Of a stretch of DNA of 64,000 nt, positions 9,020-62,390 are shown one piece after another; positions within the stretch are counted from its first letter, which is position 1; each line of letters begins with the position of its first letter. The stretch covers positions 32,001-96,000 of the IMG/VR virus record IMGVR_UViG_3300031992_004562; one strand, 5' to 3'. The notes under the pieces are model-generated. The model was not told where the DNA came from. It saw nothing but the letters and a program-made list of their open reading frames with translations, and ran no database searches. This stretch comes from a virus. Its lineage: Duplodnaviria; Caudoviricetes. Position numbers and translations under genes: made by a program.

Positions 9020-9048
9020 AAAGGACTCTAAATTTAGAGTCCTTTTTT
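9020..9048. terminator. bidirectional intrinsic terminator
   Basis: aaaggactctaaatttagagtccttt between convergent genes. Confidence 0.8.
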
Positions 9049-9989
9049 CATTCTATATAAATTGGTCTTATTTTACCAGTTACTGCTGGAATTGATTCAT
9101 TATTCCAAACAATATATGAATTACATTTAACATTAAAAATAGAAGACATTTTTATTTTTGCTAAATATAAATATATTTTATCTTTAAGTTGATTGTTCTT
9201 AGGATTTTCTCTATAAAGTTCAGATGTCTAATATAAAGCAAGGTCTTCATATGGGAACCATATAAAATTAAGTGGGTCTTTTTTAGAAACTAATAAATAA
9301 CCAAGATCTGGCATATATTCATCAAGTTTAAGATGATATTGTTTTGTATCTGTGAATAATTCAAGAAATTGAAACATTGTTGGCGTTCTATAATGTTTAT
9401 CAACATTATATGCTGCATCATCTTCTAATTCTAGTTTAAAACTATTCTTAGATTTATCTTTAAACTATTTAATATAGGTGTTTTTGAGCTTTTCTGTTTT
9501 ATCCCCTCCAGCATCTGTTCTATTAGGCATAGTATCACCCCAAACATAATATGAACCATTTTCTGCATTAAATTGAATTCTATTAATAGTAAATACATAA
9601 TCCATCTTTTCAAGATTTTCAGTGCACCATAAAGTGCCAGATGGCAAATTAAGATCAACGTATTCTCTATAAAAAACATTTTTTAATTTTAGATAATCCA
9701 TTAATATATCAACTTCAACTTTAGATAATGGAAATCTTTCTAATAGGTTCTCTTTAAATAATTTTAGATTATCTTTATATATAATTAATGAATAATAAAA
9801 TTCTAATATAGCATCTTCGTGAAGAATTTTTGGAAAAATAATATGTTTGCAGAATTGAAGTTTTTCTTCTTCTCCTGTATCAATTATATCTTGTTTTTGA
9901 TTATCCTATTCATCATTAAAATCAAAATCATCTAATGCTAAACTAACACCTTTTCCTATTGAATCTATTATGTTTTTTGTTGATTTCAT
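9048..9989 (-). CDS. tag-A leader plus DUF1566/Fib_succ-like C-type-lectin-fold protein (recoded)
   Basis: MKSTKNIIDSIGKGVSLALDDFD leader; YVDLNLPSGTLWC, YYVWGD, EDDAAY, RTPT, KIRPI motifs; continuous through TAGs. Confidence 0.75.
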
Positions 9990-10069
9990 TAAAAATATTT
10001 AATATTTTTATATTTATCACTTATACATATATAAAATAAATAATAAAAAATAAAAATGCTTTAAGATAT

Positions 10070-11806
10070 ATGGCAAAAAAATTTGTAATTAGCTACAGTT
10101 TAGATAAAATATTTTTATCATATAATTTATCTGAGAGAACAGCAGTTCTAAAAGAATCTGAATCATATGATGAAAATTCAATAATTTATATTCATGATAA
10201 TGAATATGGAAACTGGATTTATGTTAAAGGACATTTATATGGAGTTGATTATGAGTTAAATAATAACTTAAGTTAGCTTGAGGAATTTATATGTGATCAT
10301 CATGAAACGCTATCTAAACAAGATGATAAGATAAGATATATTGAGGATTATACAAAGCTTAATGTTGAAGATCTTAGCACAAAAATTAGCACAGTTGAAT
10401 TTGATACTTAGATTCATCATCAAACAACATTTAATATATCAATTAATGAAAAGTATGATCATACATATTCATATGAAGTTACAAATAACTATGATTAGTA
10501 TTTATTAGAATATAATAGGTAGTTATCCAGATTGTTCAATCTTAAATTAATATCACTTGAAGAATTTTTTTATAAAATGCAATATTCAATAACGCCAGTT
10601 GTCAATTTAAATATTTTTCCATATGATTCATCAAGTATTCATGTAGATTGTGTGGCACTATTAATTAATTACATTTTTGATACTTCTGGCCAAGTTGGAA
10701 ACAGTTTCGGTCAAAAACTGCATATATTTGTGTAGGATGGAAAATATATAGTTTTTACACGAAAATTTGATAGTAATAATTTAGTATTTGAAGATTGGCA
10801 ACTTATTTCATATGGTTCAGGTGGAAATGTTGATCCAGAAATTATAGATAATATAAATTCATCTATTAATGAAATTAAAACCACATTTGAACAAACTGCA
10901 CAATATGTTGTTAATGAATTTAATAATGTTAACTCATCAATAAATGATATTAACACAAAATTAAATAATCTCAATCTTAAGTATTATGCTGGATAGAATA
11001 TTTCAATAAATGATAATAATGAAATATCTGCATTAGGATATATTTATGATAATGAGAAAAAATGTTTTATTGAAGGCCCTGGGTATTATATTGAATGGCT
11101 GGATGCTAGCAATGCATTAGATGTTGATATGAGAGTTGATATATCTGGATCTGCTGCTGCAACAACTTATACATATACTGGTGATAGTGAAAAAATTCAA
11201 AATTTTGAGAATAATATTAAGCATGTACAACCATATTATGACATATATTTAAAAATTTCAAACAATAGAATTGCACAATATGTTTCTAACAGTTTAGATG
11301 TTGAAAATAAAACATTTAATGTTGTACGATCATTTGATAATAATCAAGATATACATAAAGAGGATTTAGTATAGGTTGGTGGCAAATAGTCAATAAATAT
11401 TGACAATGTAAGTATAGGCACACATATTGAAGACACATTTAATACTGCACATGGTGAATATTCTCATGTAGAAGGCGTATTAAATGGTGCTATTGGATAT
11501 GCTTCACATGCTGAAGGATATGGCACAACTACAAATAATGAATCTGAACACGCTGAAGGAATTTCTAATGTGTCTCACAAAGCATCTGATACATATGGAG
11601 ATGCAGGTAACACTCAACATTCTATAGGCATAGATGGAAAAAATGCAATAGAAGTAATGCAGAATGGTGATATGTATTTGATTGGTGTTGGTGGATATCA
11701 AGGAACTGATACTAAAGCACAAGATCCAACAATTAAAACTCTCCAAGAATACATTGCATCCCTTGAAGAACGTATTGCAATATTTGAAGGAAATACAATT
11801 AAGTAA
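10070..11806 (+). CDS. tail fibre/spike-like protein, 578 aa (recoded)
   Basis: Four ORF-track fragments in one frame joined by TAG; AG(Q)NISINDNNEISA, SHVEG/SHAEG/EHAEG repeats, NAIEVMQNGDMY. Confidence 0.75.
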
Positions 11807-11826
11807 AAATTTTAATAAAATATTTT

Positions 11827-14166: not shown

Positions 14167-14168
14167 TT

Positions 14169-14371: not shown

Positions 14372-16288
14372 ATGAAAGCAAAAGAAAAGACAATTGAAGA
14401 ACGATTTAAATCAATGTCAGAAAGAGATCATATTTTGAATCGACCTGGTATGTGGGTGGGTTCTATTAAATATGAAGAATCACAACAATTTATATATGAT
14501 ATTGATGAAGCAAAAATGAAAGTTGCAGATGTTGCATATATTCCAGCAATGTTAAAACTTGTTGATGAGGTTATTTCTAATTCATGTGATGAGTTTAGAC
14601 GTAAAGGAAATATGGGACTTACAAAAATTAAAGTAACTATAAATTCAAATGGATACATTACTATTAGAGATAATGGGGGTATTCCAATTGTTAAACATAA
14701 AGAAGCTGGAGTATATCTTCCTGAATTTTTATTTGGCCAGCTTCGTAGTAGTTCTAATTATGATGATACTGAAGAAAGAGACGTTGTAGGTACAAATGGC
14801 GTGGGCTCAGCGTTAACAAATGTATGGTCAAAACAATATGAAATTACTTCTGCAGATGGAAAGAAACAATATCATCGAACATGGTCTAATAATATGGAGA
14901 TGAATGATGATTTAAAAATCTCTATTACATGCGATCACTTTACAGAAACCAAGTTTTTACTTGATTATGATAGATTTGATGAAGAAGATGAATCATATAT
15001 AACTGAAGATTTTATTGCTATTATTGAAAAGAGATGTATTGATGCTGCCGCAGCTAATCCAGGATTAACAACTATATTTGAATATATTGAAAATGATAAG
15101 ACTGTAAGAAAAGCAGAATGGAATTTTAAAACATTTGAGGAATATATTGAACTTTATTCTGATTATATTGATCAGGAGAATTGTATTTCATTTAAGGATA
15201 AACAAAAACAAGTTTGGGTATATCCAGATGGTGGATTAAATATTGGTTTTGTTAATGGTGCTGAATGTTCTAAAGGAACTCATATCAAAGCTATTAGAGA
15301 TGAAATTAATAAAGCAATTGCTACACAGATTCTTCAAAAGAATAAAATAGATGTAGGACCTCGTAATGTTGATGGAAAATATACAATGTTTTGTATATAT
15401 CATGTAGCAAATCCAAGTTACGACTCTCAGTTGAAAACTTGTCTTACTACGCCCATAGAGAGATTCTCATTAGAACACGATTATAAATTTTCTATTCCAG
15501 ATAAGTTTATTAAGGATTGTTGCAAATCAGAGATTGTTAATATTGTTATTGATTGGTATAAACAAAAAGCTGAAGTTGAAGATCAAAAAACAATTAGAAA
15601 ACTTAATAAACAAGCAAAAACAAAAATTAGAAATTCAGATAAATTTATTGATGCAAATACTAAAGTTCGAAAAGATCGAGAACTTTGGTTATTTGAGGGT
15701 GCATCTGCTGCAAGTTGTTTCCGTGTAGCAAGAAATCCACAAACTCAAGCAGCTTATCTTTTAAGAGGAAAACCATTAAACACCATTTCTCTTGGCCCAA
15801 GTAAGATTATGTCAAATCAAGAGTTCAGTGATATTATTACTATATTAGGTTTGCAATGGGGAGAGAAAAATAAAGTTGATGGATTAAACTTTGGAAAAAT
15901 AGTTTTCTGTTCTGATGCTGATGAGGATGGAAGTAGTATTTGTGGATTATTGTTAACATTCTTTGGAATCCATTTCCCAGAATTATTTGATGAAGGAATG
16001 ATTTGTAGAGCAATTTCTCCAATTATTGTTGCTGAAAAGGGAAAAGATTATAAAGCTTATTATAAATTGGAAGATTATAGAAAAGAGATGAATTCTCTTA
16101 AAGGCTATAAAATTAAATATGTTAAAGGTCTTGGTACATTATCAACACCAGAATTTAAAGAAATGATGCAAAAACCAATTTATCATTATTTCACTAAAGA
16201 TGATATGTATGAATTGAGTTTAAGATCATGGTTTGGTAAAGGTAATGCATCTGAACGTAAAGCAATGTTAAAAGAAGACGTAGAATAA
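14372..16288 (+). CDS. type II DNA topoisomerase large subunit (GHKL ATPase + TOPRIM; T4 gp39/60-like)
   Basis: HILNRPGMWVGS, EVISNSCDE, DNGGIP, GTNGVGS, FEGASA, LRGKPLN, DADEDG, KGLGT. Confidence 0.95.
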   Translation: MKAKEKTIEERFKSMSERDHILNRPGMWVGSIKYEESQQFIYDIDEAKMKVADVAYIPAMLKLVDEVISNSCDEFRRKGNMGLTKIKVTINSNGYITIRDNGGIPIVKHKEAGVYLPEFLFGQLRSSSNYDDTEERDVVGTNGVGSALTNVWSKQYEITSADGKKQYHRTWSNNMEMNDDLKISITCDHFTETKFLLDYDRFDEEDESYITEDFIAIIEKRCIDAAAANPGLTTIFEYIENDKTVRKAEWNFKTFEEYIELYSDYIDQENCISFKDKQKQVWVYPDGGLNIGFVNGAECSKGTHIKAIRDEINKAIATQILQKNKIDVGPRNVDGKYTMFCIYHVANPSYDSQLKTCLTTPIERFSLEHDYKFSIPDKFIKDCCKSEIVNIVIDWYKQKAEVEDQKTIRKLNKQAKTKIRNSDKFIDANTKVRKDRELWLFEGASAASCFRVARNPQTQAAYLLRGKPLNTISLGPSKIMSNQEFSDIITILGLQWGEKNKVDGLNFGKIVFCSDADEDGSSICGLLLTFFGIHFPELFDEGMICRAISPIIVAEKGKDYKAYYKLEDYRKEMNSLKGYKIKYVKGLGTLSTPEFKEMMQKPIYHYFTKDDMYELSLRSWFGKGNASERKAMLKEDVE

Positions 16289-16289: not shown

Positions 16290-17402
16290 ATGAAATGCTA
16301 TGATTTTTTAATAGTTGGTGCTGGTTTATTTGGTGCAACATTTGCATATAAAGCTAAACAAGCTGGAAAGAAATGTTTAGTTATTGATAAGCGTAAACAT
16401 CTTGGTGGAAATACTTATTGTGAAAATATTTACGGAATTAATGTTCATAAATATGGTGCACATATATTTCATACATCAAATAAGGAAATTTGGGACTTTG
16501 TAAATTCACTAGTCCCATTTAACAATTATATTAATTCACCTCTAGCCAACTATAAAGGCGATATATATAATTTACCATTTAATATGAATACATTTCACCA
16601 GATGTGGAATATTAATACACCAAATGAGGCTGAGAATATAATTAATGAACAAAGAAAAAAATTAAATGGAAAAGAACCTGAAAATTTAGAAGAACAAGCT
16701 ATATCTTTAGTTGGTAGAGATATTTATGATATATTAATTAAAGGTTATACAGAAAAGCAATGGGGAAGAAAATGTTCTACACTTCCAGCATCTATAATTA
16801 AACGGCTTCCATTAAGATTCACATATAATAATAATTATTTTAATGATACATATCAAGGAATTCCAATTGGTGGATATAATAAGTTAATTGAAAAATTATT
16901 GGAAGGTGTAGATGTTAAATTAGATTGTAATTTCTTTGATCATAAAACTGGTGCACTTGCAGATAAAATAATTTATACTGGTCCAATAGATGAATTTTAT
17001 GATTATCAATTTGGACATCTTGAATATAGAACAGTAACATTTACTCATGAAGTTATTTTAGACTATAATTATCAAGGAAATGCTGTTATTAATTATACAG
17101 ATAAAAAGACTCCATATACAAGAATAATAGAACATAAGCATTTTGAAACATTTGGAGGCAGTGTTTATGATAATCCAGTAACTGTTATTTCAAAAGAATA
17201 TAGTTTGGAATGGAAACCTGGTATGGAACCATATTATCCAATTAATGACAATAAGAATAATCGAAAATATAATTTATATAAAGAACTTGCTGATAACGAA
17301 CCAGATGTGTTCTTTGGTGGAAGATTGGCAGAATACAAATATTATGATATGGCACCAACTATAGAAAGTGCAATAAAATTGGCAGAAAAAATAATTAAAT
17401 AA
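16290..17402 (+). CDS. glf: UDP-galactopyranose mutase
   Basis: IVGAGLFG, HKYGAHIFHT, GYTEKQWG, YTRIIEHKHF, EPYYP, GRLAEYKYYDM. Confidence 0.95.
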   Translation: MKCYDFLIVGAGLFGATFAYKAKQAGKKCLVIDKRKHLGGNTYCENIYGINVHKYGAHIFHTSNKEIWDFVNSLVPFNNYINSPLANYKGDIYNLPFNMNTFHQMWNINTPNEAENIINEQRKKLNGKEPENLEEQAISLVGRDIYDILIKGYTEKQWGRKCSTLPASIIKRLPLRFTYNNNYFNDTYQGIPIGGYNKLIEKLLEGVDVKLDCNFFDHKTGALADKIIYTGPIDEFYDYQFGHLEYRTVTFTHEVILDYNYQGNAVINYTDKKTPYTRIIEHKHFETFGGSVYDNPVTVISKEYSLEWKPGMEPYYPINDNKNNRKYNLYKELADNEPDVFFGGRLAEYKYYDMAPTIESAIKLAEKIIK

Positions 17403-17407
17403 AATAT

Positions 17408-18163
17408 ATGGAACAAAAATTTTTATATTCAATATTAACAGTTAACACAAATCATTATGAAAAAATACATGAGGTTCAAAATCCAAATCCTAATGTAGAG
17501 TATGTATGTGTAACAGATGATGAAACATTAACATCTAAAACATGGAAACTTATTTATAAAAAAGATATTTGGTTTCTTGATGTAAAGCATAATGTATTTG
17601 ATTATGTTTCTACAGATGTTTGCTTATGGCTTGATGGAAGTTATCAAATAACTGATGACCCAACAGAAGAATTTGTTATGCCATTTATAAAATCAGATAA
17701 AGAAATGATGATATCATTGCATAATTGGCGAACAAATGTCTTTGATGAATTATGCCAATGGTGGATTGGCAGAAATGTTCAAACAAAAAATGTAAAAGCC
17801 CTATGTTCTATATTATGTAAAAATGATATGTCAGGAAAGGATATTTTATTCCAAACATCATGTTATTTAGTAAAGAAAACTGAAAGTGTTATAAAATTAT
17901 ATAATACTATTAGAGAAGTAGAAAAGGTATGTAGTATTGATGGACCATATAGAGATGACCAAGTTATTACATCAATGTGTATTGCAAAATTATTCCCAAA
18001 TTGGAATAAATTAGTATTAATGGATTTTGGACATATTTCAAATAACAAATATTTCCATATGTGTGCGCATGGTAGTGACCAAGCATATCGTTTTACAGCA
18101 CTTAAAAACAGATGTTGGGATAAAGAACAACACTTATATAAAATTGGGCAGCCTTTTGATTAA
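17408..18163 (+). CDS. putative glycosyltransferase (DUF616-like GT-A fold)
   Basis: YVCVTDD, CLWLDGS, H..R..VFDE, RDDQV; directly downstream of glf. Confidence 0.65.
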   Translation: MEQKFLYSILTVNTNHYEKIHEVQNPNPNVEYVCVTDDETLTSKTWKLIYKKDIWFLDVKHNVFDYVSTDVCLWLDGSYQITDDPTEEFVMPFIKSDKEMMISLHNWRTNVFDELCQWWIGRNVQTKNVKALCSILCKNDMSGKDILFQTSCYLVKKTESVIKLYNTIREVEKVCSIDGPYRDDQVITSMCIAKLFPNWNKLVLMDFGHISNNKYFHMCAHGSDQAYRFTALKNRCWDKEQHLYKIGQPFD

Positions 18164-21290: not shown

Positions 21291-21860
21291 ATGAATAATA
21301 AACATTTATACAATAAAATTATAAATGCTATAAATGAAAGTGTCTAGAATGCATTAAATGAATATAACAAATATGAAAATTCTGATCATCATCGTGGTGG
21401 CAATATTCATGATTTAAAATTTCTTGCATAGGTACTAACTAATAAATATGGTTATAAAGCATATCCTGTATCATCTACACTTGGAAAACCATATTAGTTA
21501 ATTTTAAGAAGAGAAAGTGGAGTAAGAAAAAATGTTTATGTTCAACAACGAAAAAAGGGAACAACTTCAGGAAATATTGCATTAAGACTTAAAAAATATG
21601 GTGAAACATTATCATTATTAGACAATCCAGAAATTAATGAAATTTGTTTGATATGCCCGCCTGTAATGAATTATGATCCAAGAGGTGAAGTAGTTGATAA
21701 TACTAAAGCTTGTTTTTTTGAAAAAGATTATTTAAAAGATAAAGTTGAACATGGGGAAATTCCAATAACAAAAACACGAGATGGTGAAATGTTAATGCTT
21801 TCAGAAAAATGGATAAAAGAAAATGCAAAACAAATTATTTCATATAAATATATACGATAA
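21291..21860 (+). CDS. tag-B-like leader protein (recoded), possible nuclease-like fold
   Basis: MNNKHLYNKIINAINESV(Q)NALNE; three TAGs join it to ORF 21648..21860. Confidence 0.7.
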
Positions 21861-21888: not shown

Positions 21889-22740
21889 TTATAAATTTAT
21901 TACTGGACGAACGCTAAAACCAATATAACGATTGTTAGTGAATACACGGATATTGTCTGAATAGAAATGCAAGTACCAAGCGTAATTGGGAACGCCTAAA
22001 TAAAGACTTGAAGACCACAAGTTACAGCCAGAACCAATGCCGTAGATATCAGAATCATTATGATAACCAGCTGCAGGAATAAACAATTGATTTCCATTCT
22101 TTCCTTTAAATATCCTGCCATTTAATCCTTGAATTCCTCCATCAACTTTTAGATTATGCTTTATTTTATTAGGATTATAATTATTAACCCAATAACTATG
22201 AGTATAATTTATTAATTCTATATACTGTTCTTCAGTTGGAATATGAAATTTAAAATTATGTAATTTTTTATTCTAGTAAGCAGCATCATCTTCAGGCAGT
22301 AATTCTGTTAAATTATCAGTAAATCCCCAAGTTTTTGTTATTTGATTATATCCCTTTTGAGGATTATTACAATATTTTGTTAAACAATCTTTTTCAGATA
22401 AATCTGTATAGTGTTCTGCATATTTATATGTAGACCAACTGAATTCTGGTTTATTTGGTTTCAATTCGCCCCATGCATAATATCCACCATACCAATCTTC
22501 GGCTTTAGACAACTAATTCTAATTAACTCCTAAATTATATTTGCACCATAAAGTGCCTGAAGGCAAACCTAAATCAACAACTTCTTTTATTAAATCATAT
22601 TTCTATTTAATAACATCTTCTGCATTAATGACATCATTATGTTGAGATAATGAACTAATTGGTTCATTATCTTCAAAATCATCAAGTGCAAGTTTAATGC
22701 CTCTATTTACAGCTTCTAATATCTGTTTATAATTTTTCAT
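21889..22740 (-). CDS. tag-A leader plus DUF1566/Fib_succ-like CLec-fold protein; candidate DGR target (recoded, 4 TAG)
   Basis: MKNYKQILEAVNRGIKLALDDFED; VDLGLPSGTLWC, YYAWGE, EDDAAY, FIPAAG, LWSSS, GFSVRPV. Confidence 0.85.
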
Positions 22741-22808
22741 AATTCAATATATTTATTAAACAAAATAACAATTTATTCATATAATTTAAAAATAATAGAG
22801 TGCTTTAA

Positions 22809-40432: not shown

Positions 40433-40762
40433 TTATTCTTCATTATCATTATCAAATTCTTCTTCTGTCTCATCAAATGGGCCTTCCATTCCTGACAATA
40501 TATCAGCAGCTTCACCTAAGCCATCTGCTAATTCACGAACATAATCAGATAATTCTTCATATGTTTCACAACTTGTGAAAGCACCACGACGGCATGATTC
40601 GACTTCATACTTCAAATCATAGATTTTATCTAAGACTTCAGTTAAGAAATCTAATTCATTCTCATCCCATCCATCCATTGTAGATTCATTAAGAGCTTTT
40701 TTAACATGGGTTGATACCGCTTTCATAACGCTCTCAAATATTTTTTTATTTTCTCTAGTCAT
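40433..40762 (-). CDS. tag-B leader acidic protein
   Basis: MTRENKKIFESVMKAVSTHVKKALNE. Confidence 0.75.
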   Translation of the reverse strand: MTRENKKIFESVMKAVSTHVKKALNESTMDGWDENELDFLTEVLDKIYDLKYEVESCRRGAFTSCETYEELSDYVRELADGLGEAADILSGMEGPFDETEEEFDNDNEE

Positions 40763-40788: not shown

Positions 40789-41469
40789 TCAATCTTCACC
40801 TCTTTCCCATTGTTCATCTTTCCAACGATCATACGCATCATCGTCATCATCATTGAAATATTCTTCATCGTAGTTATTATCTACGATTTCACTGATTTCA
40901 TCAACGAAACAATCATCTAATTTATTTTTAACAATTTCTTCTTTTGTTAAAACTGTATGATTATTATTGACATCTACGACATCTATTTCAACACCGGTAA
41001 TAGTAATAGTATCAACTTCTCCATATCCTCCCTCTGGTGGTTGATAGTAGTCGCCTGGACGATAAGGAACATAATCCCATGTAACATCAAAATCAACATT
41101 AATAGTTATATCTGAACATGGTACCTATACATAAATTGTTCCACCGCTCATTTCTGTATCTGAATCATAAATATAATTTTCATAATAAGAATATGCATTT
41201 GGATAGAATTTCTTATATTGTCTAGCCATTATAGACCAATCTATATTAGCAACAAAATTAATCAATTCATCTCTTGACATATTTTCAGCCAAAACATATT
41301 TTTCACCATCTCTGATTGTTTTGAAATTTGCTGGCAATTCGTCAAAATGAATTGCATCCAATTCGGCTTCATGATAGCTAGAATATATTTTTTCTTCTTC
41401 CAATAATGCCTTTTTAACTTCTTTTGCTACAGCTGACATTATTGATTCATATAGTTCTTTTTTATTCAC
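40789..41469 (-). CDS. tag-B leader acidic protein (GTG start, recoded)
   Basis: VNKKELYESIMSAVAKEVKKALLE; TAG at 41125 read through to TGA at 40789; PGDYYQPPEGG. Confidence 0.72.
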
Positions 41470-41555
41470 AATAATCCTATATTTGTTTTTATATTTATTT
41501 TTGTAAAAAAACATTTTTGGGTTACTATGTTATAATTAATAAATATTAAAAATAT

Positions 41556-45814: not shown

Positions 45815-46606
45815 TTATTTCATTAAAACTGGTCTTACAAAAACACCATGTTCTCTTGCTATTGTATCAATACGTATTCTATTATCTTTTTCAATTTGCA
45901 TACAATAATATAACCAATCAAACGCTTCAGGATATATATAACTTGTCATATAATATCCATAATTTAAATTTGTTAAGTTTACATTAATTGAATTTTCATT
46001 CTAAAGATACCCATGTATTGGAAATATTATTTCATTTCCATTTATTTTAGAGGTTAATTTACAAACATATAAATTTAAAACACCATTGTATGTATAATGA
46101 AAAGATTTTATTGTATTGGCTAATAACTCTTCATATTGATCTATAGTTGGTACACAAATATTTACATGATATTTTTTATATAAATTGGAATTATATGCTG
46201 GGTCATCGCATAATTCTAATTTCATTAATTTATCATCTTTATTATATTTAATATAATGATCTATAATATTTCTATTATTAATAGTTCGTTTTTCTAAAAA
46301 TTTATACTATGTTGTTATTTTAGGTTTTAATTCACCAAATGCATAATAATCTCCATACCAATCAGCAGCTATTTCTAAATTATTAGGATTAACACCAAGA
46401 TTATATTTTGACCACAACGTTTTAGATGGAAGACCTAAATCGACAAAATTTTTCATTAACTCTATTTTATCATTGATGACATCATTTACATCTATAACAT
46501 CATTACTCTAAGATATAGAATTATTATCTTCCATATCTTGATAATCATCAAGTGCCAACTAAATACCTCTATTGACTGCCTCTAATATTTGTTTGTAATT
46601 TTGCAT
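45815..46606 (-). CDS. tag-A leader plus DUF1566/Fib_succ-like CLec protein (recoded)
   Basis: MQNYKQILEAVNRGI(TAG)LALDDYQD; VDLGLPSKTLWSKYNLG, YYAFGE, GVFVRPV. Confidence 0.85.
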
Positions 46607-48063
46607 TATCTTAAAGTGTTGAATGATTTTGCATAAACATTATATCCAAACATATATGCACAATTTGATGACGCATTAAATATTTCAAAAGGATTATTAT
46701 AATTATCAATCACTATATCATTTGTAAGATTGATAGATGTATTACAGTTATTTAATATTGTAATATTTTTTACTGTGTTTATAGTGTTATTAAGTGTTAA
46801 ATTATTTGATGAATTTATATATAATTCATTAATATCATTAATATAAGTCGTAGCTGCAGCATTAATATTTATATTATTATCATTATTAATATACAAATTA
46901 TTTAAAACAACACTATTTCCACTAATATGAATATTATTATCATTATTTATTAGTGCATTTTTCATTACTGTAACAAGGCTGTCTGCATAAATAGTATTTT
47001 TATTTCCAATAATATTATTATTAAACTATAATAATGGTGGATCTGCGTTTGTTTTTGTTCTTTTAATAAATATTGAACAATCATAACCAATATAATTATT
47101 TGATATTTCTCCACGACTAATAGCATTATTTGAATAAAAAATTGGCATACATTTTGTTATATATGGGTTGGTTTTAATTATATTATTATAATAATCAACA
47201 TTATTAAATGTTAAACGGAAACTATCACCAGGATGTTTATATGTTAAATTACAAAAATCATATGGCGCTTCATTTCCACTACTATCTTTTAATAGTGTAA
47301 TCTTTATTTCATATTTGGCGCCATTTTGAACTATATCATATGTTCCATAAACATTTAATGAATTTCCACTATGATCATACATATTATATAATTTACCATT
47401 AAATGTTGATGTATCATTTGCTTTAACTAATAAACTTAATGAATTATAACTTAATGGACCACTAAAATTAAATCCAGGCATTGCCATACAACCATTAGTG
47501 TCTGTAGGTTCTGATTTATAATAATCAGTAATTAAATAAAATTTATTTGGAATAAATGGTTTAGCATTTAATATCTATTTTAATGTTCCAACTGATGTAT
47601 TTAACGCATCATATAATTTATTAACACTGCTATCTAACCCACCAATATGTTCATTAATATCATTAATTGACGCATTGAATAAATCACGTGTAGTATAATG
47701 TGTAAGAATTTCTGATAAATTATAGTTTTTAACATTTAACTATCTATATGTTGTTCCAGGAATAATATTTGTAGATATATTAGAAACAACAATATCTTCA
47801 TTTGTATCTTTATCAACCAATTTATAGTCTGGATATGGGCTTACTGAATATGTTGACCATGCTATAGATCCAATATTTGTACTTATATCAGGATCAATAT
47901 TAACAGCAACTGGGAATCCAGAATAGACATACTTTCTTGCAATAATACTAGTATCATTATATTTACGTTCGACCTCATAATATAATGAAGTTAAATCTGT
48001 TGTTGGCGAAATATTAATACCACTGGCATCAATAAGTTGTAAACTTTTTGCGGTTGTTTGCAT
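46606..48063 (-). CDS. tail-fibre-like Asn/Ile-rich protein, 485 aa (recoded)
   Basis: Three fragments in one frame; FYLITDY, LKDSSGNEAPYDF, N-rich beta-helix-like C-terminus. Confidence 0.7.
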
Positions 48064-50359: not shown

Positions 50360-50393
50360 AGAAACTTCGATGAGATATCGAGGTTTCTTTTTT
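50360..50393 (+). terminator. intrinsic terminator
   Basis: agaaacttcgat-gagat-atcgaggtttct followed by a T run. Confidence 0.75.
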
Positions 50394-50409
50394 AATAAAT
50401 ATATTGAAT
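50393..50409 (+). promoter_or_regulatory. late-type promoter/leader TAATAAATATATTGAAT (ATAAATA core, T4 late-like)
   Basis: Identical 17-mer immediately before the tag-A genes at 22740 (-), 35408 and 50410; ATAAATA also precedes other recoded genes. Confidence 0.6.
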
Positions 50410-51408
50410 ATGAAAAGATTTAATAAGCAAATATTAGAAGCAATCAATAGGGGTGTTTAGTTGGCACTTGATGATTTTGATTATAATGAAGATATAACAA
50501 AATCTAAAACTGATATAATTAATACTGAAGAATATGCATTTAGTATTATAAACACATTATATAAAAAACTAACATCTGAAATATTAACTGTTTAGGAATT
50601 AGACCGTTTGGTACAATATTATCAAATAACAAAGCAAAAATATAAAGTTTATTCTAGACAAGAGCTAAAAAGAATTATTGATTATGTAATTGGTGTTTAT
50701 CAATCTGGTGATTTTGTTAAAGGACTTAATCCTGATATAAAAACATTAAATTGGATAGATGTTTCTGAAGTAAAATATATGGATGAACTATTTAAAGGAT
50801 TATAGTTTACATCAGATATTTCTGAATGGGATGTTTCTAATGTTTTAACAATGTCAAATATGTTTGAAAACGCTACATTCACTTCAGACATTTCAAAATG
50901 GAATGTTTCTAAAGTTACAACAATGTATGGAATGTTTTCAGCATGTAATTTTGAAAGTGAATTATCTGATTGGGATGTTTCCCATGTAACTGATATGGGA
51001 CATATGTTTTTCATTTCACCATTTAATGGAGATATTTCAAAATGGAATGTTAAAAATGTAACTAATATGCCATATATGTTTTATGCAGCTGTATATTTTA
51101 ATCAACCAATTGGAAAATGGAATATGTCCAAAGTTAATAATATTGATGGTATGTTTAATATGGCTAGTAGTTTTAATTAGGATATTTCTAAATGGAATAT
51201 TTCTAATGTTAAATCTTCTGAGCTTGCGTTTAGCAAATCTGGATTTGATTAGGATTTATCTAAATGGGATGGCGGAAATTTATCAATGACTACATTTAAA
51301 GGCAGTAAGATTTCTTCAAATCATTTACCAAAGTTTTGGCAAGAAAATGAAATGAATTTAGATGGCAAAAGAATATTAAATACATATTTACCAAAAGATT
51401 GGAATTAA
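50410..51408 (+). CDS. tag-A leader plus BspA/DUF285-type LRR protein (recoded)
   Basis: ILEAINRGV(TAG)LALDDFD; LNWIDVSEV, FNGDISKWNV, FNQPIGKWN, FN(TAG)DISKWN. Confidence 0.85.
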
Positions 51409-52127
51409 TGAAAAATTATAATAAAATATTAGAAGCCGTTCATCGTGGTATTTAGTTAGCACTCGATGATTTTGAAGATATAGAAGATAATAATTCTATA
51501 TTTTAGAGTAATGATGTCATTGATACAGATGATTATATAGATGATAGAGTTACATATAATAAATTATTAGAAAAGTTTTTTGATTAGATGAGTGATAGCT
51601 TAGTTATAAAAGTATCTAAAGATGATTTAAAAAAACTTGCAAATTTATCCAAAAATCTTGGTATGAAATTTAAAGTTGAAGATAATAGATTTTTACAAGA
51701 TATAATTAAAACTGTTTGTAGAATAGATAAGTCTGCAAATTTAAATTGGATTGACACATCAGAAGTAACCAATTTTGAAAATCTATTTAATATGACACTA
51801 TTTCATGGTGATATTTCAGAATGGGATACACATAATGTCAAAAACATGTATTCATGCTTTGCTTATTCTCAATTCAATGGCGATATATCAAGATGGGATG
51901 TATCAAATGTTGAAAATATGAATTGGATGTTTTAGGGTTCTTGGTTTAACAAACCAATTGAAAATTGGAATGTAGCTAAAGTAAAAAGTATGAATGGAAT
52001 GTTTAGTGAATCGCATTTTAATTAGAATATATCTAAATGGAATGTTGCAAATTGTAAAGGTTATATAAAATTTAATAATAAAAGCACATTAAAAAAATCT
52101 AATATACCACCAAAATTTAGAAAATGA
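51408..52127 (+). CDS. tag-A leader plus BspA/DUF285-type LRR protein (recoded)
   Basis: ILEAVHRGI(TAG)LALDDFED; ANLNWIDTSEV, FNGDISRWDVSNV. Confidence 0.85.
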
Positions 52128-52534
52128 TTATGGACTCAAATAAGAAAAAACAATTATATGAATAGATTATGACTTCAGTTTCTAAAGAAGTCAAAAAAGT
52201 TTTAAATGAAGCACGTGCTAAAAAATATGAATTCTCTAAAAAAGATTTAGATGAAATCAAAAAGTATATACTAAATGATGAAGATTTTTATAAAACATAT
52301 TGTCAATATGCAAATTTAGATAGATACGATTCATATGAAGAAGCAGTAGATGATGTAATGAATTTTTTAGAATAGGATGTGTATACGGGTGATCCAGAAG
52401 ATGATTTAGTAGTCCATAAATGGTATATGTTAGATGAGCCTGATTTAGGGTGTTCATGGATGCAATTAAAATCTGGCAAAATTGCAAATTTAGATAATAT
52501 ATATAAAGAATTCAAAGGAATGATTGAAGAATAA
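52124..52534 (+). CDS. tag-B leader protein (recoded)
   Basis: NKKKQLYE(TAG)IMTSVSKEVKKVLNE. Confidence 0.72.
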
Positions 52535-52632: not shown

Positions 52633-53001
52633 TTATTGGTTCATTACTATACCAAGGCATTTTAATTGATTTATTGAAATATTAATAACAGCATAATCAG
52701 ATTTATTATAATGATCCTTTCCAAAATCTACAGTTACATCAACATTAAACTTATCTCTATCATATGAAATATTTGATAAAATTGTGGTTTTAACTAATTC
52801 TGTAATTTCTTCTTGATTATAACTTAAATTAAAAATATATTTCTTAATATTTGCACCAAAATATGGAGCACCAAGAACATCACCATATGATGTTCCTAAT
52901 ATCATCTTTATCTATGATAATATTTGTTCCATTTCATTAGTTGTCTCAACTAATGGAACATATTGCTAATCTGATGCTAATCTATTATAAATATCAATCA
53001 T
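52633..53001 (-). CDS. baseplate wedge gp25-like protein (recoded)
   Basis: EQILS(Q)IKMILGTSYGDVLGAPYFGANI. Confidence 0.75.
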
Positions 53002-53002
53002 A

Positions 53003-54928
53003 TTATGTTAATGGTGTATATTTTGTAAGTGTTCTTGATAATTTATTTGATTTCTTTTCTTCAAATTTAATATTAAATGCTGAAATTCCAGATATGCTTT
53101 GTTTTTCTGAATATTGTGTTCCATTTTTATCTAAGAACCCACCTCTAACTAATGGAAGAATGTCTTTAACATTCATTATTTGTCCATTATTGTCTTTAAT
53201 GGTTCTTGTTAAAATAATATCTCCATATCCATCAATACCATCAAAATTATTTCCATAGATATTTTTATTATTTACATCTGCAACAAATTGTGCTTTAACA
53301 GAATCTACTCCAGGAACATCATTTTCAAATATAGAAATAATATCAGAAATAGGAATCATATCTTTACGTTCTCTATTTATAAAGTATTCTGATAATTTAT
53401 CTAATGCAGCTGCATATACTTCTTGTTCATCATAATTTTCCCAAATTTTAACTTGAACATTTAATGCAAATCTTGCAATTTTTGGTTGAATTATTCTATT
53501 TTCAAGTGTTATAATTCGTTGACCAGATGCATTAATTAAATTAATAATATTTTCTTGTTCATCTTCTGATAACCAGAATAATGATTCATCACATGTAAAA
53601 TAATTTGAAGATGATGGCATACGTTTTTTAATATCTGGAACTAAGAAAATATAAATTGTATTATCTCTATATGTGTTATCTGATAATTTTGTAGATGTGT
53701 ATTTATACATCTAATATTTCTTTTCCATTTCTTTATGAGCCTACGCAACTTCTTCACTACCTTCACCATAAATATTAATCGCATCGTTATATAATGCTCT
53801 GGCATCGGTATAATCTTTATAAGCTTTATCACTTGCTAATTGCATAACAGATGAGCCATTAACAGTATATGATCCTCTAAATATTTCAATATCAGAAAAC
53901 ATATTCATTCGTCTAAAGAAATAATTATAATTTACTTCAGATGCTAAAACATATGAACGACTAACATGTGGAGCAATTAATTGTGTTAATGCAAGATCTT
54001 CACCATATGTTCCAAATATAATATCAGTTGTCAATCTAATTTTGAAATTTCCATTTAATTTAACAGCCTCACCTGTAGGAAGAACACCAGTTCCATCCCA
54101 TTCCCAATTATCTGCAATATTTACATCATTCATAAATAAGTTGGAGTTTTCACCATCTGTGACAATATATTCAATAATAATTGTAGATGATTGAGGAGGA
54201 ATTGCACCCATTGCACCATTTCCAAAAAATACATCAAGACCGGAATTAATGCCTGTACGAACTACACATCCTTTTTGATTAAATCCTAAATCTAAAATAG
54301 ATTTATAAATTTCCCATGGTTCACCATTTACATATACATTAATATAATATTGATCAACTTCTTGATAATTTCTTTCTGCAAAATTATATGATTGTAGTGG
54401 TTCACCTGTACCTGTTGCCTATTGAAGTTTAATTTCACCCTAAATTAAATTTGCATCAATATAATTGCCTGCATTCATTGTTATTTTTGCATTATTAGCA
54501 CCAAATAAAAGTGTATAAGTTAAACCATTTCTTTTACTAATTACCTTAGTTTTATTTGGAATATAACAAACACCACCATTTAATTGATAGTTTCCCGTAT
54601 CAACATAATAAATTTGACATGCACCGCGAGCAGAAATTGGCCGTGAAGTATCATGCCCAGCCAACTATGCCAAACCTTTAACTTGGTCTGGACGGTATGC
54701 AGTACGAATATTTAAACCCGTAATAGAATCTTCAATATAATAAAATATCATTCTTCCAAGATGAAGAATAACTTGAAGCAATTGGCCAAAAGGTGATGCA
54801 GTATTAAATTCTTGCCCTGCAGCCTTATAAGTTGACTTGATATAAGCCAATGCGTCATAATACAATTCACTAAATTTTATTCTATTTAGTTTAAAAATTT
54901 TTATTTCTTTATCATCTTTATTAGCCAT
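53003..54928 (-). CDS. baseplate wedge gp6/J-like protein, 641 aa (recoded, 5 TAG)
   Basis: Four fragments in one frame; GQLLQ..FYYIED..NIRTA..LAGH..RPISARG, FFGNGAMGAIPP..IEYIVTDG. Confidence 0.8.
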
Positions 54929-54960
54929 ATGTAAGCCAATTTAATTTTACTTTTTATTTA

Positions 54961-56361
54961 TCATCTTAATGATGCATATCCCATTGTGTATACACTTACA
55001 TTATTTGTATCGCTGCCAAATAATATAGTACTTGAACATAATTTTTGATGTTCGTATGCCATTCTAGCTGCATCACTAAAAAATAATCTTGTATTATTTA
55101 ATATTGATGTATCTAATGGTACTGGATTTGTATCATTGGCACCAATAATAATATTATTATATCCTAAATTAAGATTCTAATTTGTAAGATTAATTAAAAC
55201 ATTATTATTTCCTTCAATATTAATAGAACAATCATTACAATTTATAAGAACATTATTATTTCCAACAATAACTACACTACAATCATCTACAAACTCATAT
55301 GTAGCATTATTTATTGAATTATAAATTTTATTAGATGATCCATTTGATATACATATGCCTGAGCTATAATATACATTATTATTTGAGCATTTTTTACTAA
55401 ATGTAATTTTATCTGAATCATATATTTCATTATTACTATAATAATATTCATTTTGATATGATAGAGCATATGTAAAATATATAGATGAATCATTTGGATC
55501 AAAATATAATTTATTATTTACAAAGCGTTTAATATTGCCCATATTAGAATTAGGATCAAATATTAAATAATGTATAGATGAATTTGTAAAATCAAAATTT
55601 CCTTCATTTCCATATTCATCTTTTAAATATGTAATTTTATTGGATGCTGTATCATAATGAAACTCTCCATATGTTTTATTATAATATGATGCATCATCTA
55701 AAGATACCTAAGAACAATCACCATTTATAGAAATATTCTAAACTTTAATACTCATAATTGGTGTATTCCAACTACGTGGCTCATAATCAATAAAATATAT
55801 GTCATTTTCTTCTTCAGGAACTACTTTATCATTATTATAAATTAGTTCATGTAAATGACTCATAACTTCTTCACATTTTTTAACACTTGCATCCAAAGAA
55901 CTCGTATTAATTGATGAAAGACTTGCATTAATATTTTGAATAGATGCATCAAAATAATATAATTGTTGATAATGATTTAATAATTCATGCAAATCTACAT
56001 ATGTATTATTAACAACACTAAATAAACTAGAATTATACCAAAACTTATTTTTGTCTTTGTCATATGGATTATGTTCATCAACTGTATAAAGAGATGTATT
56101 TATATATACATGTGGATCGTTATTAGATAATTCATATACTGCATCAAATGATAAAGATTCTAATTCGTAAGGGGCAGTGTTAACAAATTTAAAATCTTTA
56201 TTAAATTGCACAGGCATATTTTTAACAAAAGACTTTCTATGAATAACTATTTTGCCATCTTCTTTTTTAGCCTATTCATAATATAGTGAATCAATATTCG
56301 TTATAGGAGAAATTTTGTTAAATCTATTATCTAAATACTATACCTTTTTACTAGTAAACAT
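54961..56361 (-). CDS. tail-fibre-like protein, paralogue of 46606..48063 (recoded)
   Basis: KISPITNIDSLYYE, LKDEYGNEGNFDF, GNNNVLIN repeats. Confidence 0.7.
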
Positions 56362-56378
56362 TCAATTATCAATTATTT

Positions 56379-56624
56379 TTACCATTTTTTCTATGGGCAT
56401 CCGTCAATTGATACTCCATTTTCATCCTCTGGGTAATCAACTCTAACTTTTGCCTTTATAATACATCCACATAATTCACAAATTCCATCTTTATTATGTG
56501 TGCAATTATTACATATTTCTAATCTTTCTTTTGCCTTCTATTTAGTTTTTCCAGAAATAATATTCCAAGTCCATACTAAATACCCAGCAATAATATAACA
56601 TATATGTTTAAAAAAATTTTTCAT
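56379..56624 (-). CDS. small Cys-rich protein with an N-terminal hydrophobic segment (recoded)
   Basis: RLEICNNC..CELCGC..CP(Q)KKW. Confidence 0.65.
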
Positions 56625-56626
56625 TT

Positions 56627-58582
56627 TTAAGCTTTCCATTCAACTTTGCCTTCATATAATGTTGAATTTTGTGTATCATCATTATCAATCATTAATGAGA
56701 AATATCTTTCTGATGCTGGCACACTCATAATAGCGCCTGCATTATCTTTACTAATATAGAATGATAATGATCCATTTCCATAATTTGTCTTATCATTGTC
56801 CAAATTTGCAAATATATCAAGAGTTCCACCTGATATTGATGGGAAAACTAATTTATATTTCCAAGGGCCTGTTAAATCATATGGAACACGTGTATTGTCC
56901 TAATTAAGTGTATATAATTTAATTAAATAATTAGATCCACTATGATTTAATTTAAGTGTAAGTTTTCCTTGTGCATATATATTTTCAGAACCATCATTTG
57001 CAACTAATTCTGTAACATCATAAAATTCTCTAATAATTTTTGCATTAACAGATTTTTGTTCTTGGCTAGATATTATTGCATTTTGTTTTTCAATTTTATT
57101 AACAATTTTATAATTAATTACATTAGTTGTATCTATTGATGTTAATACATATTTGTAAGGATTTTTAATTGTCATTGATGCAGAACGAACAATATCAGTA
57201 TTATTCATTCTATTATATAAATGACAATTATATTGAATAACAATTGATTTGCAATTCATATTCAATCTCTCTTTAATATATGGAACAAATTTTGTAATAT
57301 AAAAATCTCCATCATCTACAGTCTTTCCTGTATAATCAATTGTATTTGTATAATAATCTGTATATGATTCTGTTCCAGTATCTTCGCCACTGTTAGAATT
57401 ATCAAGATGATAGATTCTATTATAATTGTAAGTAACTGATAATTCATTAATGACAATCCATTTAAATACATCTTCACCATACATTTCAATAAAATCATCC
57501 ATACCCTGATTAGCTGAATCATATTCACTATAATTTGTTAATGGAATTTCACCATTATTAAACTTAGTCATTATTTCAATATTTACTGGCTATACATTAA
57601 AACCATCACCATATGTTGGATGATATATGATTGAATGTGTTGTAACATCTTCATATAATTTTACACCAAAATTATTTGCATTTGATTCTGGATAAATTGA
57701 CATTTGCTTAATATTATCCAAAATAAATGTTGATGGACCATTTGAATTATGAGTATCTTCTAATTCAATATTATCAGGTGTAACTGTTGCAAATTCAACA
57801 ATTATATTTGATGATCTATCAATTGTACCACGTAAATATATTTTATTCCCATCTTCATCTTCATCTTCATAAAGATAATCAATATCTCTATGATTAACTG
57901 CAATATCCTATGCAGATGGAAGTGTAATTTCAATATATCTATCATAAAATTTACTATTAAGATATAAAGGAGACTCTAACCAATGAATATTGTCTTTTAA
58001 TTCTTCTTTTGGCATATACCAATTTAAAAGATAAACATAATCATCAATGCGTTTTACTAATGTTTGATCTTCTCCTGTTTCTTCATCTTGAAATTTTGTA
58101 GAAACTCTAAGAACTTTACCTTTTACTTTTACAGAATATCCACCAATACTATTCATTACATATCCAGTTAAAAGATAAAGTCTAATTGTATCACAATATA
58201 TTTGGTCTTCTCTATCTTCTTTTGGTGTTTCATCTGTATTTTTAATTATTGTTCCAGCAGTAAAATCAGTTTCAACTAATTCTTCTCCGTCATAATAATC
58301 TACAAATATATTACTTCCATATTGGTCAGTTTGGCTATTATAGCCTTTTGTTATTAATGAATTTTTACCACCGTAATATTGTGTAAATTTATCAGATTTC
58401 TAATATAATCCATGTTTCTAATTTTCATTTAACAAACAATATTGATTACCATCAATACCTTTATACATTATGAAATTTTTATTTTCTTTGCCAGAAGAAT
58501 TTCTAAGTATAACATATTGATCTGTTTTATATTCTAATAATACTTGACCTGTTAATTGAAAAAACTTTGATTGTACAGCCAT
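56627..58582 (-). CDS. 651-aa putative structural protein (recoded)
   Basis: MAVQSKFFQLTGQVLLEY; fragments 57908..58156 and 56900..57571 share the frame; first gene of the baseplate operon. Confidence 0.72.
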
Positions 58583-58686
58583 AATAAACTATATATAAAA
58601 TATTTTCTTTTATTATTTATTTTGCAAAAATAAAAGACCACTATTTTCACAGTGGTCTTAAAATATACTAATATTTTAATTTAAAA

Positions 58687-59301
58687 TTATTTTTTACCTG
58701 GGCGAATATTATTTTCATTTAAGAATTTTGTAAATCTACCTGCGTTAAAATTGCGTGCTTCTTGAACCTTTTTATTTTCTCCACAACTTTCGCCACATTC
58801 TTTTCCTTCACATTGGCAAGGATTTTTTCCACATTTATCACAAACTTTGCCTTCTTTACATTCTTTTCCTTCATTTTTAGATTGGTTAGCCTATTCAGGT
58901 TGTTTGCCTTTTTGTTCACCATATGCATTACGAACTTCTTTAGCAAGGAAATTTGCTGTATATTGAATATCTTCATTTTGCATTTCTGGCAATTTATCTT
59001 GAATAGTTTTATCGCATCTATTCAAAATAGCATTTGCCAATTGAACAATATTAGCAATTTTTACTGGGTTTTCACCAATTTTTTTGCCTTTAATAAGACG
59101 TCCCATACCACGAAGAACATTTGCCCAATCATCTGGATTGGCGTTCTTAACAATGTTTTGAATTTGTTTGTCTTTCTTTACTAATTCAAGAAGTTTATCT
59201 GCAACTTCTGTATCATCAAATTGAAAATCTTCATTAAGAGTTTTTTTCAATTCTTTAGCAACATTATCCATGATGCTTTCATATAATTTTTTCTTATTCA
59301 T
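58687..59301 (-). CDS. tag-B leader protein with a Cys-rich C-terminus (recoded)
   Basis: MNKKKLYESIMDNVAKELKKTLNE; CDKCGKNPCQCE; FTKFLNE. Confidence 0.78.
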
Positions 59302-59319
59302 ATAATATATTAATTATTT

Positions 59320-59910
59320 TTAATTATCAATTCCTTTAAAACGATAGTTATTATAAATTGCTTCCATTTCTTTTGGTGTTCTATGAGCTGTGCCTAATTT
59401 TAGATCATTTAATGCAATTGCCATACGATTTAATTCAGCATCAATTTTTTTACGTCTTTCTTTTTCTTCTGGAGAAATATTACTTGGTACACCCAACCAA
59501 ATATCCCAATTATATAATTGTCTTATCATAGTATTCCATCTTCCACCAGTCTCGTCATCATCTACTTCATCTAAAAGTTCTTCATACGAATGTTTATTCC
59601 AAACTATAATAAGATTTGTCTAATCATCTACAATTTCTGCTGAACCTTCTTTATAATCAGGCCCAAAAATATTTTCACAAATATTGTCTTCAGCTTCAAA
59701 TGTTTGAATCATAAATTTAATTAATGCTTCTGTTAAGATTCTTCCATTTTCAGCTTTAGGGAATTTAATATAATTATAGATATATAGATCACCATCTATA
59801 GTTTCTGTTGCATATCTTTTAGCAACCCAATATTCTAAGGATTCAAAATTAGCAAATATATAATTATTTACATAATTTTCCCATCTTTCATTACTTTCTT
59901 TAGCACTCAT
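59320..59910 (-). CDS. hypothetical protein (two ORF-track fragments joined by TAG at 59620)
   Basis: same frame, no TAA/TGA in between. Confidence 0.65.
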
Positions 59911-60277
59911 GAATATTATTATCTTTTAAGTAATTTTTAATTTTATTTAATATGCTTTGAAAATGCGTAGGTTTTTGATTAAGAATTTCTCTAATTTCAA
60001 TAAAATCAAGACCCTCTGTATAATATGTTGGAGTCTCTGCATTTTCATCTTCTATCATAACGGTTACAGCTGAATACCATACACCATTGTGTCTATTATT
60101 ATCAACTATAAAAGGCTTTTTATTATTTTTATCTTTGTCTTTATTTGCCTTTTTTGAAATTTTATCATTTAGGTATGCATATGATTTTAATGCAATTACT
60201 TCACCTACTTTATTATTAGTTGTTAAAACTAAATCGCCTATTTTTAAATCTGAAAAACTAAATTTTTGTTTGGCCAT
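59900..60277 (-). CDS. hypothetical protein (KOW/SH3-like start)
   Basis: LKIGDLVLT..KVGEVI. Confidence 0.55.
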   Translation of the reverse strand: MAKQKFSFSDLKIGDLVLTTNNKVGEVIALKSYAYLNDKISKKANKDKDKNNKKPFIVDNNRHNGVWYSAVTVMIEDENAETPTYYTEGLDFIEIREILNQKPTHFQSILNKIKNYLKDNNIHEC

Positions 60278-60308
60278 TATGTATAACTATATCTAATTTT
60301 TATATTTA

Positions 60309-62390
60309 TCAAATTTTATTATCAATATTTGTAAAGATTGTTGAAAGCATTTTAATAATAGAAGTCATATTTAACACTTTAAGATTTGGTTTGTTATTTA
60401 AACTAAATTCATTATTAATAGAGTTTGTTATGGCTTCATGATTACTAGAATAATCTGTCATTCCATTTACTCTTAATAATCTTTCTTTTGAATCGCATGC
60501 CCAACCAAGATTTGGGCAGTGAATATCATATCCATTTTCAATTGCATATGAAATATATGTTAAGAATTTATATAATTGATTATATGTATTTAATTTCATG
60601 CCAATATCACCAAAATTAAATGGATAGTAGCCACCAACTGTTGAATAATAACCATATTCAACATAATTAAATCTCATATTATATAATAATGAAATATTAG
60701 GTTCTTCAAGTGGTTTTTCGTCCTCATTTAAATTTTTATTATAATCCTCAACATATTGTTTATATAAAAGATATATAAATCGTTGAATAATTAAAAATTC
60801 ATTATATACATGATTATCAACGTCTGATTCAATTATAGAACCTGGATAATTGCCAAATGCATATAATAATTTTCTACATAAGTATACTAATAATTCATCA
60901 TTTGGATCATCTAAACGTTGTTTATCTATTATTAAATCATTATCTTCCCAAACTAAGTTAGGCTTTATACCAAGCACCAAATCTTTAATCATTGATAATT
61001 CATCTTTTGTCAATTCATCAAAATCACGTTTTTCTCCATTTTCATCTGTGTATTTTATATTAAATCTGTCATATATAAACAAATTATCAACAATAAAATC
61101 ATATGTTGGATATACACCATAACTATTCATAGAACTATCAACATTTAAACGCTTACAATGTTTATAAAATGTATTGGTAAAATTATAAAATGTTGAAAGC
61201 CATTGTTGCTCATAATCATTTGTGATTTTATCTACATCAATTCCATTATCTTTTAAAATCAATTTAACTACTGGTAAATCTAATTTGCGATATGGGTCTT
61301 TTGACTTACGTTCTTTTGCCATTGTTCTAATTGATAATAGATTTGGTGATTTTGCATTAATACTTTCAAAGTGTTCAATAACATTCTATGGTAAAATATC
61401 TATTAAATAATTTTTTGCAAAATTCTCAGCTGTTGCAATATTCTATTTCTTTTTTGCTTCAAGATCTAATTTGCTATTTAATCTATTTTCAAATTCAACA
61501 ATATTTTCATCATATGATGATTTTGTTAATTCAATGCCAAACTCTGTAAATACTAATGCATTTGCATCACAGAAGATTTTAGTGATTTTTGCAAAATCTT
61601 CAAATGAATTAAACATATTATAAAATAATGGAATCTTTGTGCCATGTCTTAATTTACTATCAAGACCATTAAAATGCTCAACGAATTCAGATGTTAATTT
61701 TAATTCATCATCTATTTCCATTAAACTCATACCAGGACGAACATCTGGTAAATAATATCCTTTTTTATTCCATACTGTTCTCCAGAATGTTATATTTTCA
61801 GTCACACCAATATATTCTAATGGGAACTCAATACCTTTAACTATATCACTTGCAGATACTCTTGTACTAAAAGGCTTATCATAATTTAGACAACCAATAT
61901 ATACAGGCCCATCTTTATAATGTTCACATATTTTAATAAGTGGATAACTAATATTTAAAAATTTTGAAGTTTTATATGTTGTACAGTTTCCTATATGTAA
62001 TTCTTTTGTTTCATCATTTAAATCTACATATAAGTCATGTTCATATTTTTTAGAATTACGTTCCTATATAATATTAATATATGCAAAATAATGTTTTTCA
62101 CCATTAATAGTATATGTTTTCCATGCACATCTATTTGAAAAAGTTTTTTCATTTCCACTATTTATATCAATATCAACATCAATAGGTTTAAAAACATTTA
62201 CTTTAAGAAATATTCTAAAATCAATTTCAGTATCAATAATATCATCTAATGTACGTGATGACATTGGTTGTGAAGATGACGGATTATCCAATTCTTCATC
62301 ATCAAAATCATCTAATGATAATGCATATGTATGTTGTTTGCTTTCTAAAACTGAATTAAAATCGAATTGTTTTTTATCGAAATTGAACAT
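60309..62390 (-). CDS. 693-aa recoded protein with a divergent tag-A-like leader
   Basis: Three fragments joined by TAG; SVLESKQHTYALSLDDFDDEE..DIIDTE. Confidence 0.7.

Follow-up and report, generated by a model that had tools for sequence, protein, structure and literature searches.

The 64,000-nucleotide stretch analysed here (the window; bases 32001-96000 of the 111,625-bp IMG/VR virus record IMGVR_UViG_3300031992_004562) encodes a short conserved peptide, tag A, which opens eight of its genes and closes one more, and which we read, tentatively and with a probability of about 45%, as a capsid-targeting module resembling the capsid-targeting sequence (CTS) of phage T4. According to this reading, tag A would be an acidic, clade-specific derivative of a second leader family, leader B, that is common to Lak megaphages. 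Behind it stand the modularity and conservation of the tag, its homology to leader B, the late expression of the tagged genes and the presence of a prohead protease in relatives. The record, with a GC content of ~27%, is 22% complete according to CheckV. The window contains a topoisomerase-like gene (14372-16288) with 62% identity to its counterpart in Prevotella phage Lak-A1, genes end only in TAA or TGA, and TAG accounts for 22% of the Gln codons; the window is therefore part of a 111.6-kb fragment of a Lak-like Prevotella megaphage in which TAG encodes Gln. Human and animal guts commonly harbour Lak megaphages, which are uncultured and mostly unannotated, and we know of no cultured Lak phage. 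Both this record and the relative used for comparison, G001 (380,519 bp, 76% complete), are classed as proviruses in IMG/VR, although each has the appearance of a piece of a lytic Lak-type megaphage genome.

Six-frame translation under table 15, followed by a whole-contig scan and a search with a tag profile, found the motif at every place where an earlier note on this DNA had claimed it. Ten places in the contig matched the profile (E 1e-9 to 1e-28), and one gene just beyond the window also starts with tag A (Table 1). Every carrier contains 2-6 in-frame TAGs, in line with the claim that all carriers are TAG-recoded, and none of the N-termini looks like a signal peptide when judged by eye, as had also been stated. 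In databases, the tag occurs in 133 clusters at 90% identity and 253 at 50% identity, nearly always within residues 1-32; with 253 clusters already carrying it, the view that standard-code annotation hides the tag was only partly right. Across 206 unique database sequences, residues 7-21, ILEA[VI]N[RK]GI[QK]LALDD, are essentially invariant while synonymous sites vary, whereas the paralogous cargoes share <45% identity with one another; the tag starts at residue 7, six residues after the Met, in 183 of 219 proteins. Among the ten paralog copies, 32% of the identical residues are encoded by differing codons, so that neither gene conversion nor a signal at the RNA level is a likely cause of the conservation, and both were rejected. 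The invariance of residues 7-21 despite differing codons points to strong selection at the protein level. All seven N-terminal copies that have a Gln in the tag use TAG for it; six of them lie in the window (approximately at 35456-35458, 36406-36408, 37143-37145, 46559-46561, 50464-50466 and 51459-51461), and the C-terminal copy uses CAA. The TAG at this position looks like a conserved early translational gate.

In an AlphaFold model of the protein encoded by 45815-46606 (predicted local distance difference test, pLDDT, 85), the tag forms a helix at residues 2-25, with moderate confidence (pLDDT 62-70), which is followed by a disordered acidic segment (residues 26-38), a second helix (residues 40-51) and a confidently modelled globular domain, so that the tag appears as a module separable from its cargo. 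Linkers are of two types, and orthologous cargo was found with either. Conservation extends over all faces of the tag helix and includes a small-xxx-small stripe (A10, G14), a pattern suggestive of a buried interface. Resemblances of the tag to the PIP-box and to the N-terminal domain of L7/L12 received no support from Pfam.

Leader B, with the consensus KKxLYESIMxxVAKEVKKALNE, starts five window genes with unrelated bodies and is present in 16 copies in G001 and 8 copies in Lak-A1. Tag A and leader B can be aligned without gaps as Y-x-x-I-h-x-[AS]-[VI]-x3-[IV]-[QK]-x-A-L-x-[DE], and, judged from this alignment, the two are homologous. The 363-aa protein that carries tag A at its C-terminus leads to the same result: the C-terminal helices of its orthologs are A-like, B-like or in between, from which it follows that the two leaders are variants of one module and that the C-terminal position is ancestral in that family. 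The proposal that the tag works at either terminus is thereby upheld. For the 363-aa protein itself, no Pfam, PHROG, PDB-sequence or Atlas lead was obtained, and its structure model (pLDDT 39.8) was too poor for use. The search that was positive on this contig gave no match to tag A in the Lak-A1, B1 and C1 records, where a shorter acidic form (LLESLFDDD) and leader B are found in its place.

The conservation of leader B halts at (L/I)-x-E in 25 of 26 copies from three lineages, nearly always as L/I-N-E, and unrelated sequence follows. At the position of this motif tag A has an invariant L-D-D, and its sole (L/I)-x-E-type motif is the internal I-L-E. L-N-E also recurs close to the N-termini of two further proteins, the gp23-like capsid protein and the S77 prohead protease, in both Lak-A1 and G001, where it is conserved although its flanks diverge (background rates per 1000 residues: 1.4 for L-N-E and 12.6 for (L/I)-x-E). 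The gapless alignment of tag A with leader B, and the apparent ending of leader B in a cleavage pattern of the T4 gp21 type, are to all appearances newly described here; the Lak-phage literature that we searched contains no mention of such tags, nor of paralogs, N-termini, DUF285 or lectins. The 204-aa leader B protein encoded by 58687-59301 is conserved in 115 database clusters, and a protein search returned mostly its orthologs, not new cargo. Outside the window, contig 8261-9037 encodes a 258-aa acidic protein with an internal leader B-like stretch (residues 141-185), which may be a two-part precursor.

The tagged genes are predicted to be expressed late on two criteria, their in-frame TAGs and an upstream ATAAATA. 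The latter was found ≤50 nt upstream of 22 of the 56 TAG-containing genes versus 8 of the 60 TAG-free genes, and it precedes every operon-leading tagged gene. The 17-mer that had been reported upstream of three carriers occurs exactly three times, against 0.07 expected, and abuts the ATG of a tagged gene each time. In three tagged genes, ATAAATA is so close to the start codon that the transcripts may have almost no leader.

The cargo had been described as five proteins of the C-type-lectin (CLec) fold and three DUF285 leucine-rich repeat (LRR) proteins. DUF285 (PF03382) was recognized in all three of the latter with 93-187 bits (Pfam gathering cut-off 25). The remaining five N-terminal carriers of the window are homologous to one another, and their tentative assignment to CLec draws on this mutual homology and on the fold match of one model, that of 45815-46606. 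Its best match was the Lcl C-terminal domain (8q4e; Z 7.4, root-mean-square deviation 5.0, 112 residues aligned), and the top VIA-align rows were nearly all C-type-lectin folds, including TvpA, Mtd, TaqVP and animal lectins, at moderate Z of 6.3-7.4. Foldseek found no match to this model in PDB, and the Pfam score for Lcl_C (PF07603) was 18 bits, under the cut-off of 34.9. Full-length database clusters with the tag (n = 88) comprise 64 CLec, 19 DUF285 and 5 other proteins; the 28 tagged open reading frames of G001 comprise 17 CLec, 9 DUF285, one truncated frame and one 414-aa unknown gene adjoining the capsid gene. The tag is thus attached to multiple types of cargo, as had been proposed, but the range is narrower than the word unrelated implied, namely two adhesin-type folds and one other family; the diversity of the cargo had likewise been overstated, ~95% of it falling into two folds. 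No pattern was found in cargo charge.

One of the CLec paralogs, encoded by 21889-22740, has C-ending codons in its C-terminus (21889-22086), where it differs from its close homologs at positions like those of the variable region of a diversity-generating retroelement (DGR). The cognate reverse transcriptase and template repeat that define a DGR target were not found with it: there is no template-like repeat in the contig, and no RVT_1 match in the contig, Lak-A1 or Lak-B1, the contig being 22% of the genome and the missing 78% being able to hold a reverse transcriptase.

The T4 analogy drawn in the earlier note has a basis in two facts, the C-terminal propeptides of T4 and the gp21-family (Peptidase_S77) prohead protease found in Lak-A1 (57.6 bits) and G001 (59.7 bits); its gene is not on this 22%-complete fragment. 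In T4, targeting to the core is a function of the first ten residues, with residues 4 and 7 of the CTS serving targeting and residues 8 and 10 processing; Asp at P1 stops the cutting and leaves targeting unaffected, and C-terminal propeptides are also lost from Alt and gp21 (PMC9026906). The head of SPN3US holds a 20-member paralog family (PMC5694885). Because of these precedents, head targeting is the most economical reading for leader B, and the homology of the two leaders extends it to tag A, which would then be a non-cleaved variant. The likeness to the T4 CTS of IPI, IPII, IPIII and Alt includes a short terminal leader on unrelated late proteins, (L/I)-x-E motifs in the leader, occurrence at both termini, as with the N- and C-terminal propeptides of T4, and hyperplastic gene sets; tag A sits as a short leader at the extreme terminus of CLec, DUF285 and 363-aa family proteins. 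T4 IPII and IPIII start with MKTYQEFIAEA, Alt with MELITELFDED and tag A with MKNYKQILEA. By analogy, the amphipathic helix would bind the assembling prohead core, and the attached protein would thereby be enclosed in the head. The gp21-type protease would then remove leader B at its terminal (L/I)-N-E, whereas tag A, with L-D-D, would probably not be removed there and would at most be clipped after I-L-E (residue 9). Lectin-fold and LRR binders, ~11 in this fragment and 28 in the 76%-complete relative, would travel in the head. The prohead protease frames (G001 226011-227792 and Lak-A1 187878-189632) encode ~590 aa, in which an S77 domain is combined with a highly acidic insert of ~200 residues and with a C-terminal domain that is helical; the Lak protease may be fused to a scaffold.

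Several observations weigh against head targeting. I-L-E in tag A and L-Y-E in leader B occupy non-homologous positions, (L/I)-x-E is a common motif, and the likeness to the T4 CTS amounts to a few residues. Tag A is ~25 residues long in place of the 10 in T4, and, unlike in T4, its most conserved part follows its only candidate site, with L-D-D replacing the cleavage motif; a long acidic linker, lectin and LRR binders as cargo and tens of carriers per genome are further differences from T4. An 'hYES' likeness between leader B and the capsid N-terminus was rejected as not significant (E 1.8), and it aligns with a non-cleaved part of the T4 gp23 propeptide. The cargo of tag A consists almost only of adhesin-type folds, which on phages are usually outside the particle. 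Moreover, one paralog (21889-22740) looks DGR-diversified, as receptor-binding proteins do, and several tagged genes adjoin fibre-like and baseplate genes.

These points lend weight to the main rival explanation, in which tag A would be an uncleaved docking helix that attaches interchangeable adhesins, through a flexible acidic tether, to a repeated site of the outer virion (fibre, baseplate or capsid decoration), and so creates a surface of multivalent or mixed specificity. We regard it as doubtful, although it keeps a substantial minority of the odds because of the adhesin cargo, the DGR-like paralog, the fibre and baseplate neighbours, the conserved helix faces, the non-homologous sites of the two leaders, the frequency of (L/I)-x-E and the non-significant likeness of leader B to the capsid protein. 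The predominance of CLec and DUF285 among both the G001 frames and the database clusters, the fold matches to Lcl, TvpA, Mtd and C-type lectins, the translational coupling of 45815-46606 to a fibre-like gene and the tagged genes flanking or inside the gp25/gp6 baseplate operon are all consistent with it; an invariant L-D-D would suit a tag that must stay uncut, and the A10/G14 stripe a buried interface. The system would then resemble the N-terminal anchors of phage receptor-binding proteins and the tail peptide of the adenovirus fibre, which likewise pair an invariant N-terminal docking piece with distal binding domains that vary, and which come in several versions per genome; it differs in that the module is one helix, borne on a disordered tether and related by homology to a leader of propeptide type, with no known oligomeric shaft. 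In the same way, the cargo fold and the C-terminus of one paralog recall the DGR variable proteins of C-type-lectin fold (Mtd, TvpA, TaqVP) and the Lcl C-terminal domain, but no reverse transcriptase or template repeat was found here and the Lcl_C score is below threshold. The absence of a reverse transcriptase from the contig, Lak-A1 and Lak-B1 also counts against external docking, as does the homology of tag A to leader B, in appearance a propeptide that could be cleaved from the small, non-adhesin proteins bearing it. The tagged genes are, in addition, scattered over the genome, and their adjacency to tail genes is therefore weak evidence. An unlikely extension of capsid targeting is that tag A became a deliberately uncleavable Lak capsid-loading leader (L-N-E to L-D-D), which would tether ~30 lectin and LRR binders, some of them DGR-like and hypervariable, in the virion, so that the phage would deliver or display an antibody-like panel against host surface or defence molecules.

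Two further explanations were considered. The tag might be recognized, as a leader, by another phage factor, for example a chaperone, an export pathway or an enzyme that modifies the protein, or it might have no addressing role and simply be an N-terminal domain passed on within a growing paralog family. Most carriers do belong to two paralog families, in which the tag could have been inherited by duplication; we nevertheless consider this quite unlikely, since the tag is far more conserved than the cargo and is attached to three or more unrelated bodies, at the N-terminus as well as the C-terminus, and no modifying enzyme is consistently adjacent. Less probable still is self-association, in which the tags of the various carriers, the C-tagged 363-aa protein among them, would associate as mixed oligomeric bundles like the coiled-coil lectins collectin and tetranectin and would need no separate receptor. 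The hydrophobic residues follow a 3-4 heptad pattern over ~20 residues, the basic N-terminal and acidic C-terminal ends, as read from sequence, would fit antiparallel pairing, and the second helix precedes the lectin domain as in tetranectin; however, an invariant Gly lies mid-helix, the tag helix is modelled with moderate confidence, and the conserved terminal L-N-E of leader B would be left unexplained.

Bacterial microcompartments and encapsulins load unrelated cargo by means of amphipathic helices of ~18-20 residues, at either terminus and on a flexible linker, and encapsulin shells have the HK97 fold, as do phage capsids. These peptides are not known to be related to tag A in sequence, and the comparison is an analogy.

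The gp25/gp6 baseplate operon (52633-62390, minus strand) comprises a gp25-like gene (52633-53001), a gp6-like gene (53003-54928), genes for a 466-aa fibre-like protein and for unknown proteins of 651 and 693 aa, and a leader B gene. Asn-rich fibre-like paralogs are encoded by 46606-48063, 54961-56361 and 10070-11806, one of them coupled to the tagged lectin gene. The fibre-like and baseplate-operon proteins gave no PDB or family matches.

Table 1. Genes carrying tag A, leader B or related leaders, and the shared upstream element. Positions are those of the window unless given as contig positions.
Feature	Position	Strand	Remarks
Diverged tag A (IIDSIGKGVSLALDDF) and diverged CLec-like cargo	9048-9989	-	N-terminal; table 15 translation, tag profile, mutual homology
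Tag A (Lys replacing the TAG-coded Gln) and CLec cargo with DGR-variable-region-like C-terminus	21889-22740	-	N-terminal
Tag A and DUF285 LRR cargo	35408-36361	+	157 bits
Tag A and CLec cargo	36358-37098	+	N-terminal; mutual homology
Tag A and CLec cargo	37086-37883	+	Start codon 37086 or 37092; mutual homology
Tag A, acidic linker and C-type-lectin-fold cargo	45815-46606	-	Start overlaps stop of fibre-like gene 46606-48063; structure model
Tag A and DUF285 LRR cargo	50410-51408	+	187 bits
Tag A and DUF285 LRR cargo	51408-52127	+	93 bits
363-aa protein with C-terminal tag A, LLEAVNRGIQLALDDVEDF-stop	34260-35351	-	Last 19 residues (34263-34319) are tag A; tag profile
Extra N-terminal copy of tag A	contig 16994-17761	+	Outside window; whole-contig scan
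693-aa protein with diverged acidic tag (ALSLDDFDDEE)	60309-62390	-	First gene of baseplate operon
DUF285 protein with diverged relative of tag A	contig 6293-6910	+	Outside window
Leader B gene, 204 aa	58687-59301	-	Inside baseplate operon
Three tandem leader B genes	39654-40415, 40433-40762, 40789-41514	-	Unrelated cargoes
Leader B gene	52124-52534	+	Coupled to two upstream tag A DUF285 genes
Gene with leader between A and B (LYNKIINAINESVQNALNE)	21291-21860	+	
17-mer, late-promoter-like element	22742-22758; identical 35393-35409, 50393-50409	-; +, +	

With ~28 A-type and 16 B-type genes per genome, the tag would label a large share of the unknown late proteins of Lak phages as one functional class. 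If the T4-like reading is true, these phages would far surpass T4 in the variety of ready-made cargo that they carry, and some of it, the binding-domain proteins, would be of a type never before observed inside a phage head; if docking is true, the tag would represent a plug-in system of a new sort for attaching adhesins to the virion. In both cases, such proteins can be found in metagenomes simply by means of the invariant 15-mer, which is also usable in the design of pull-down and tag-reporter experiments.

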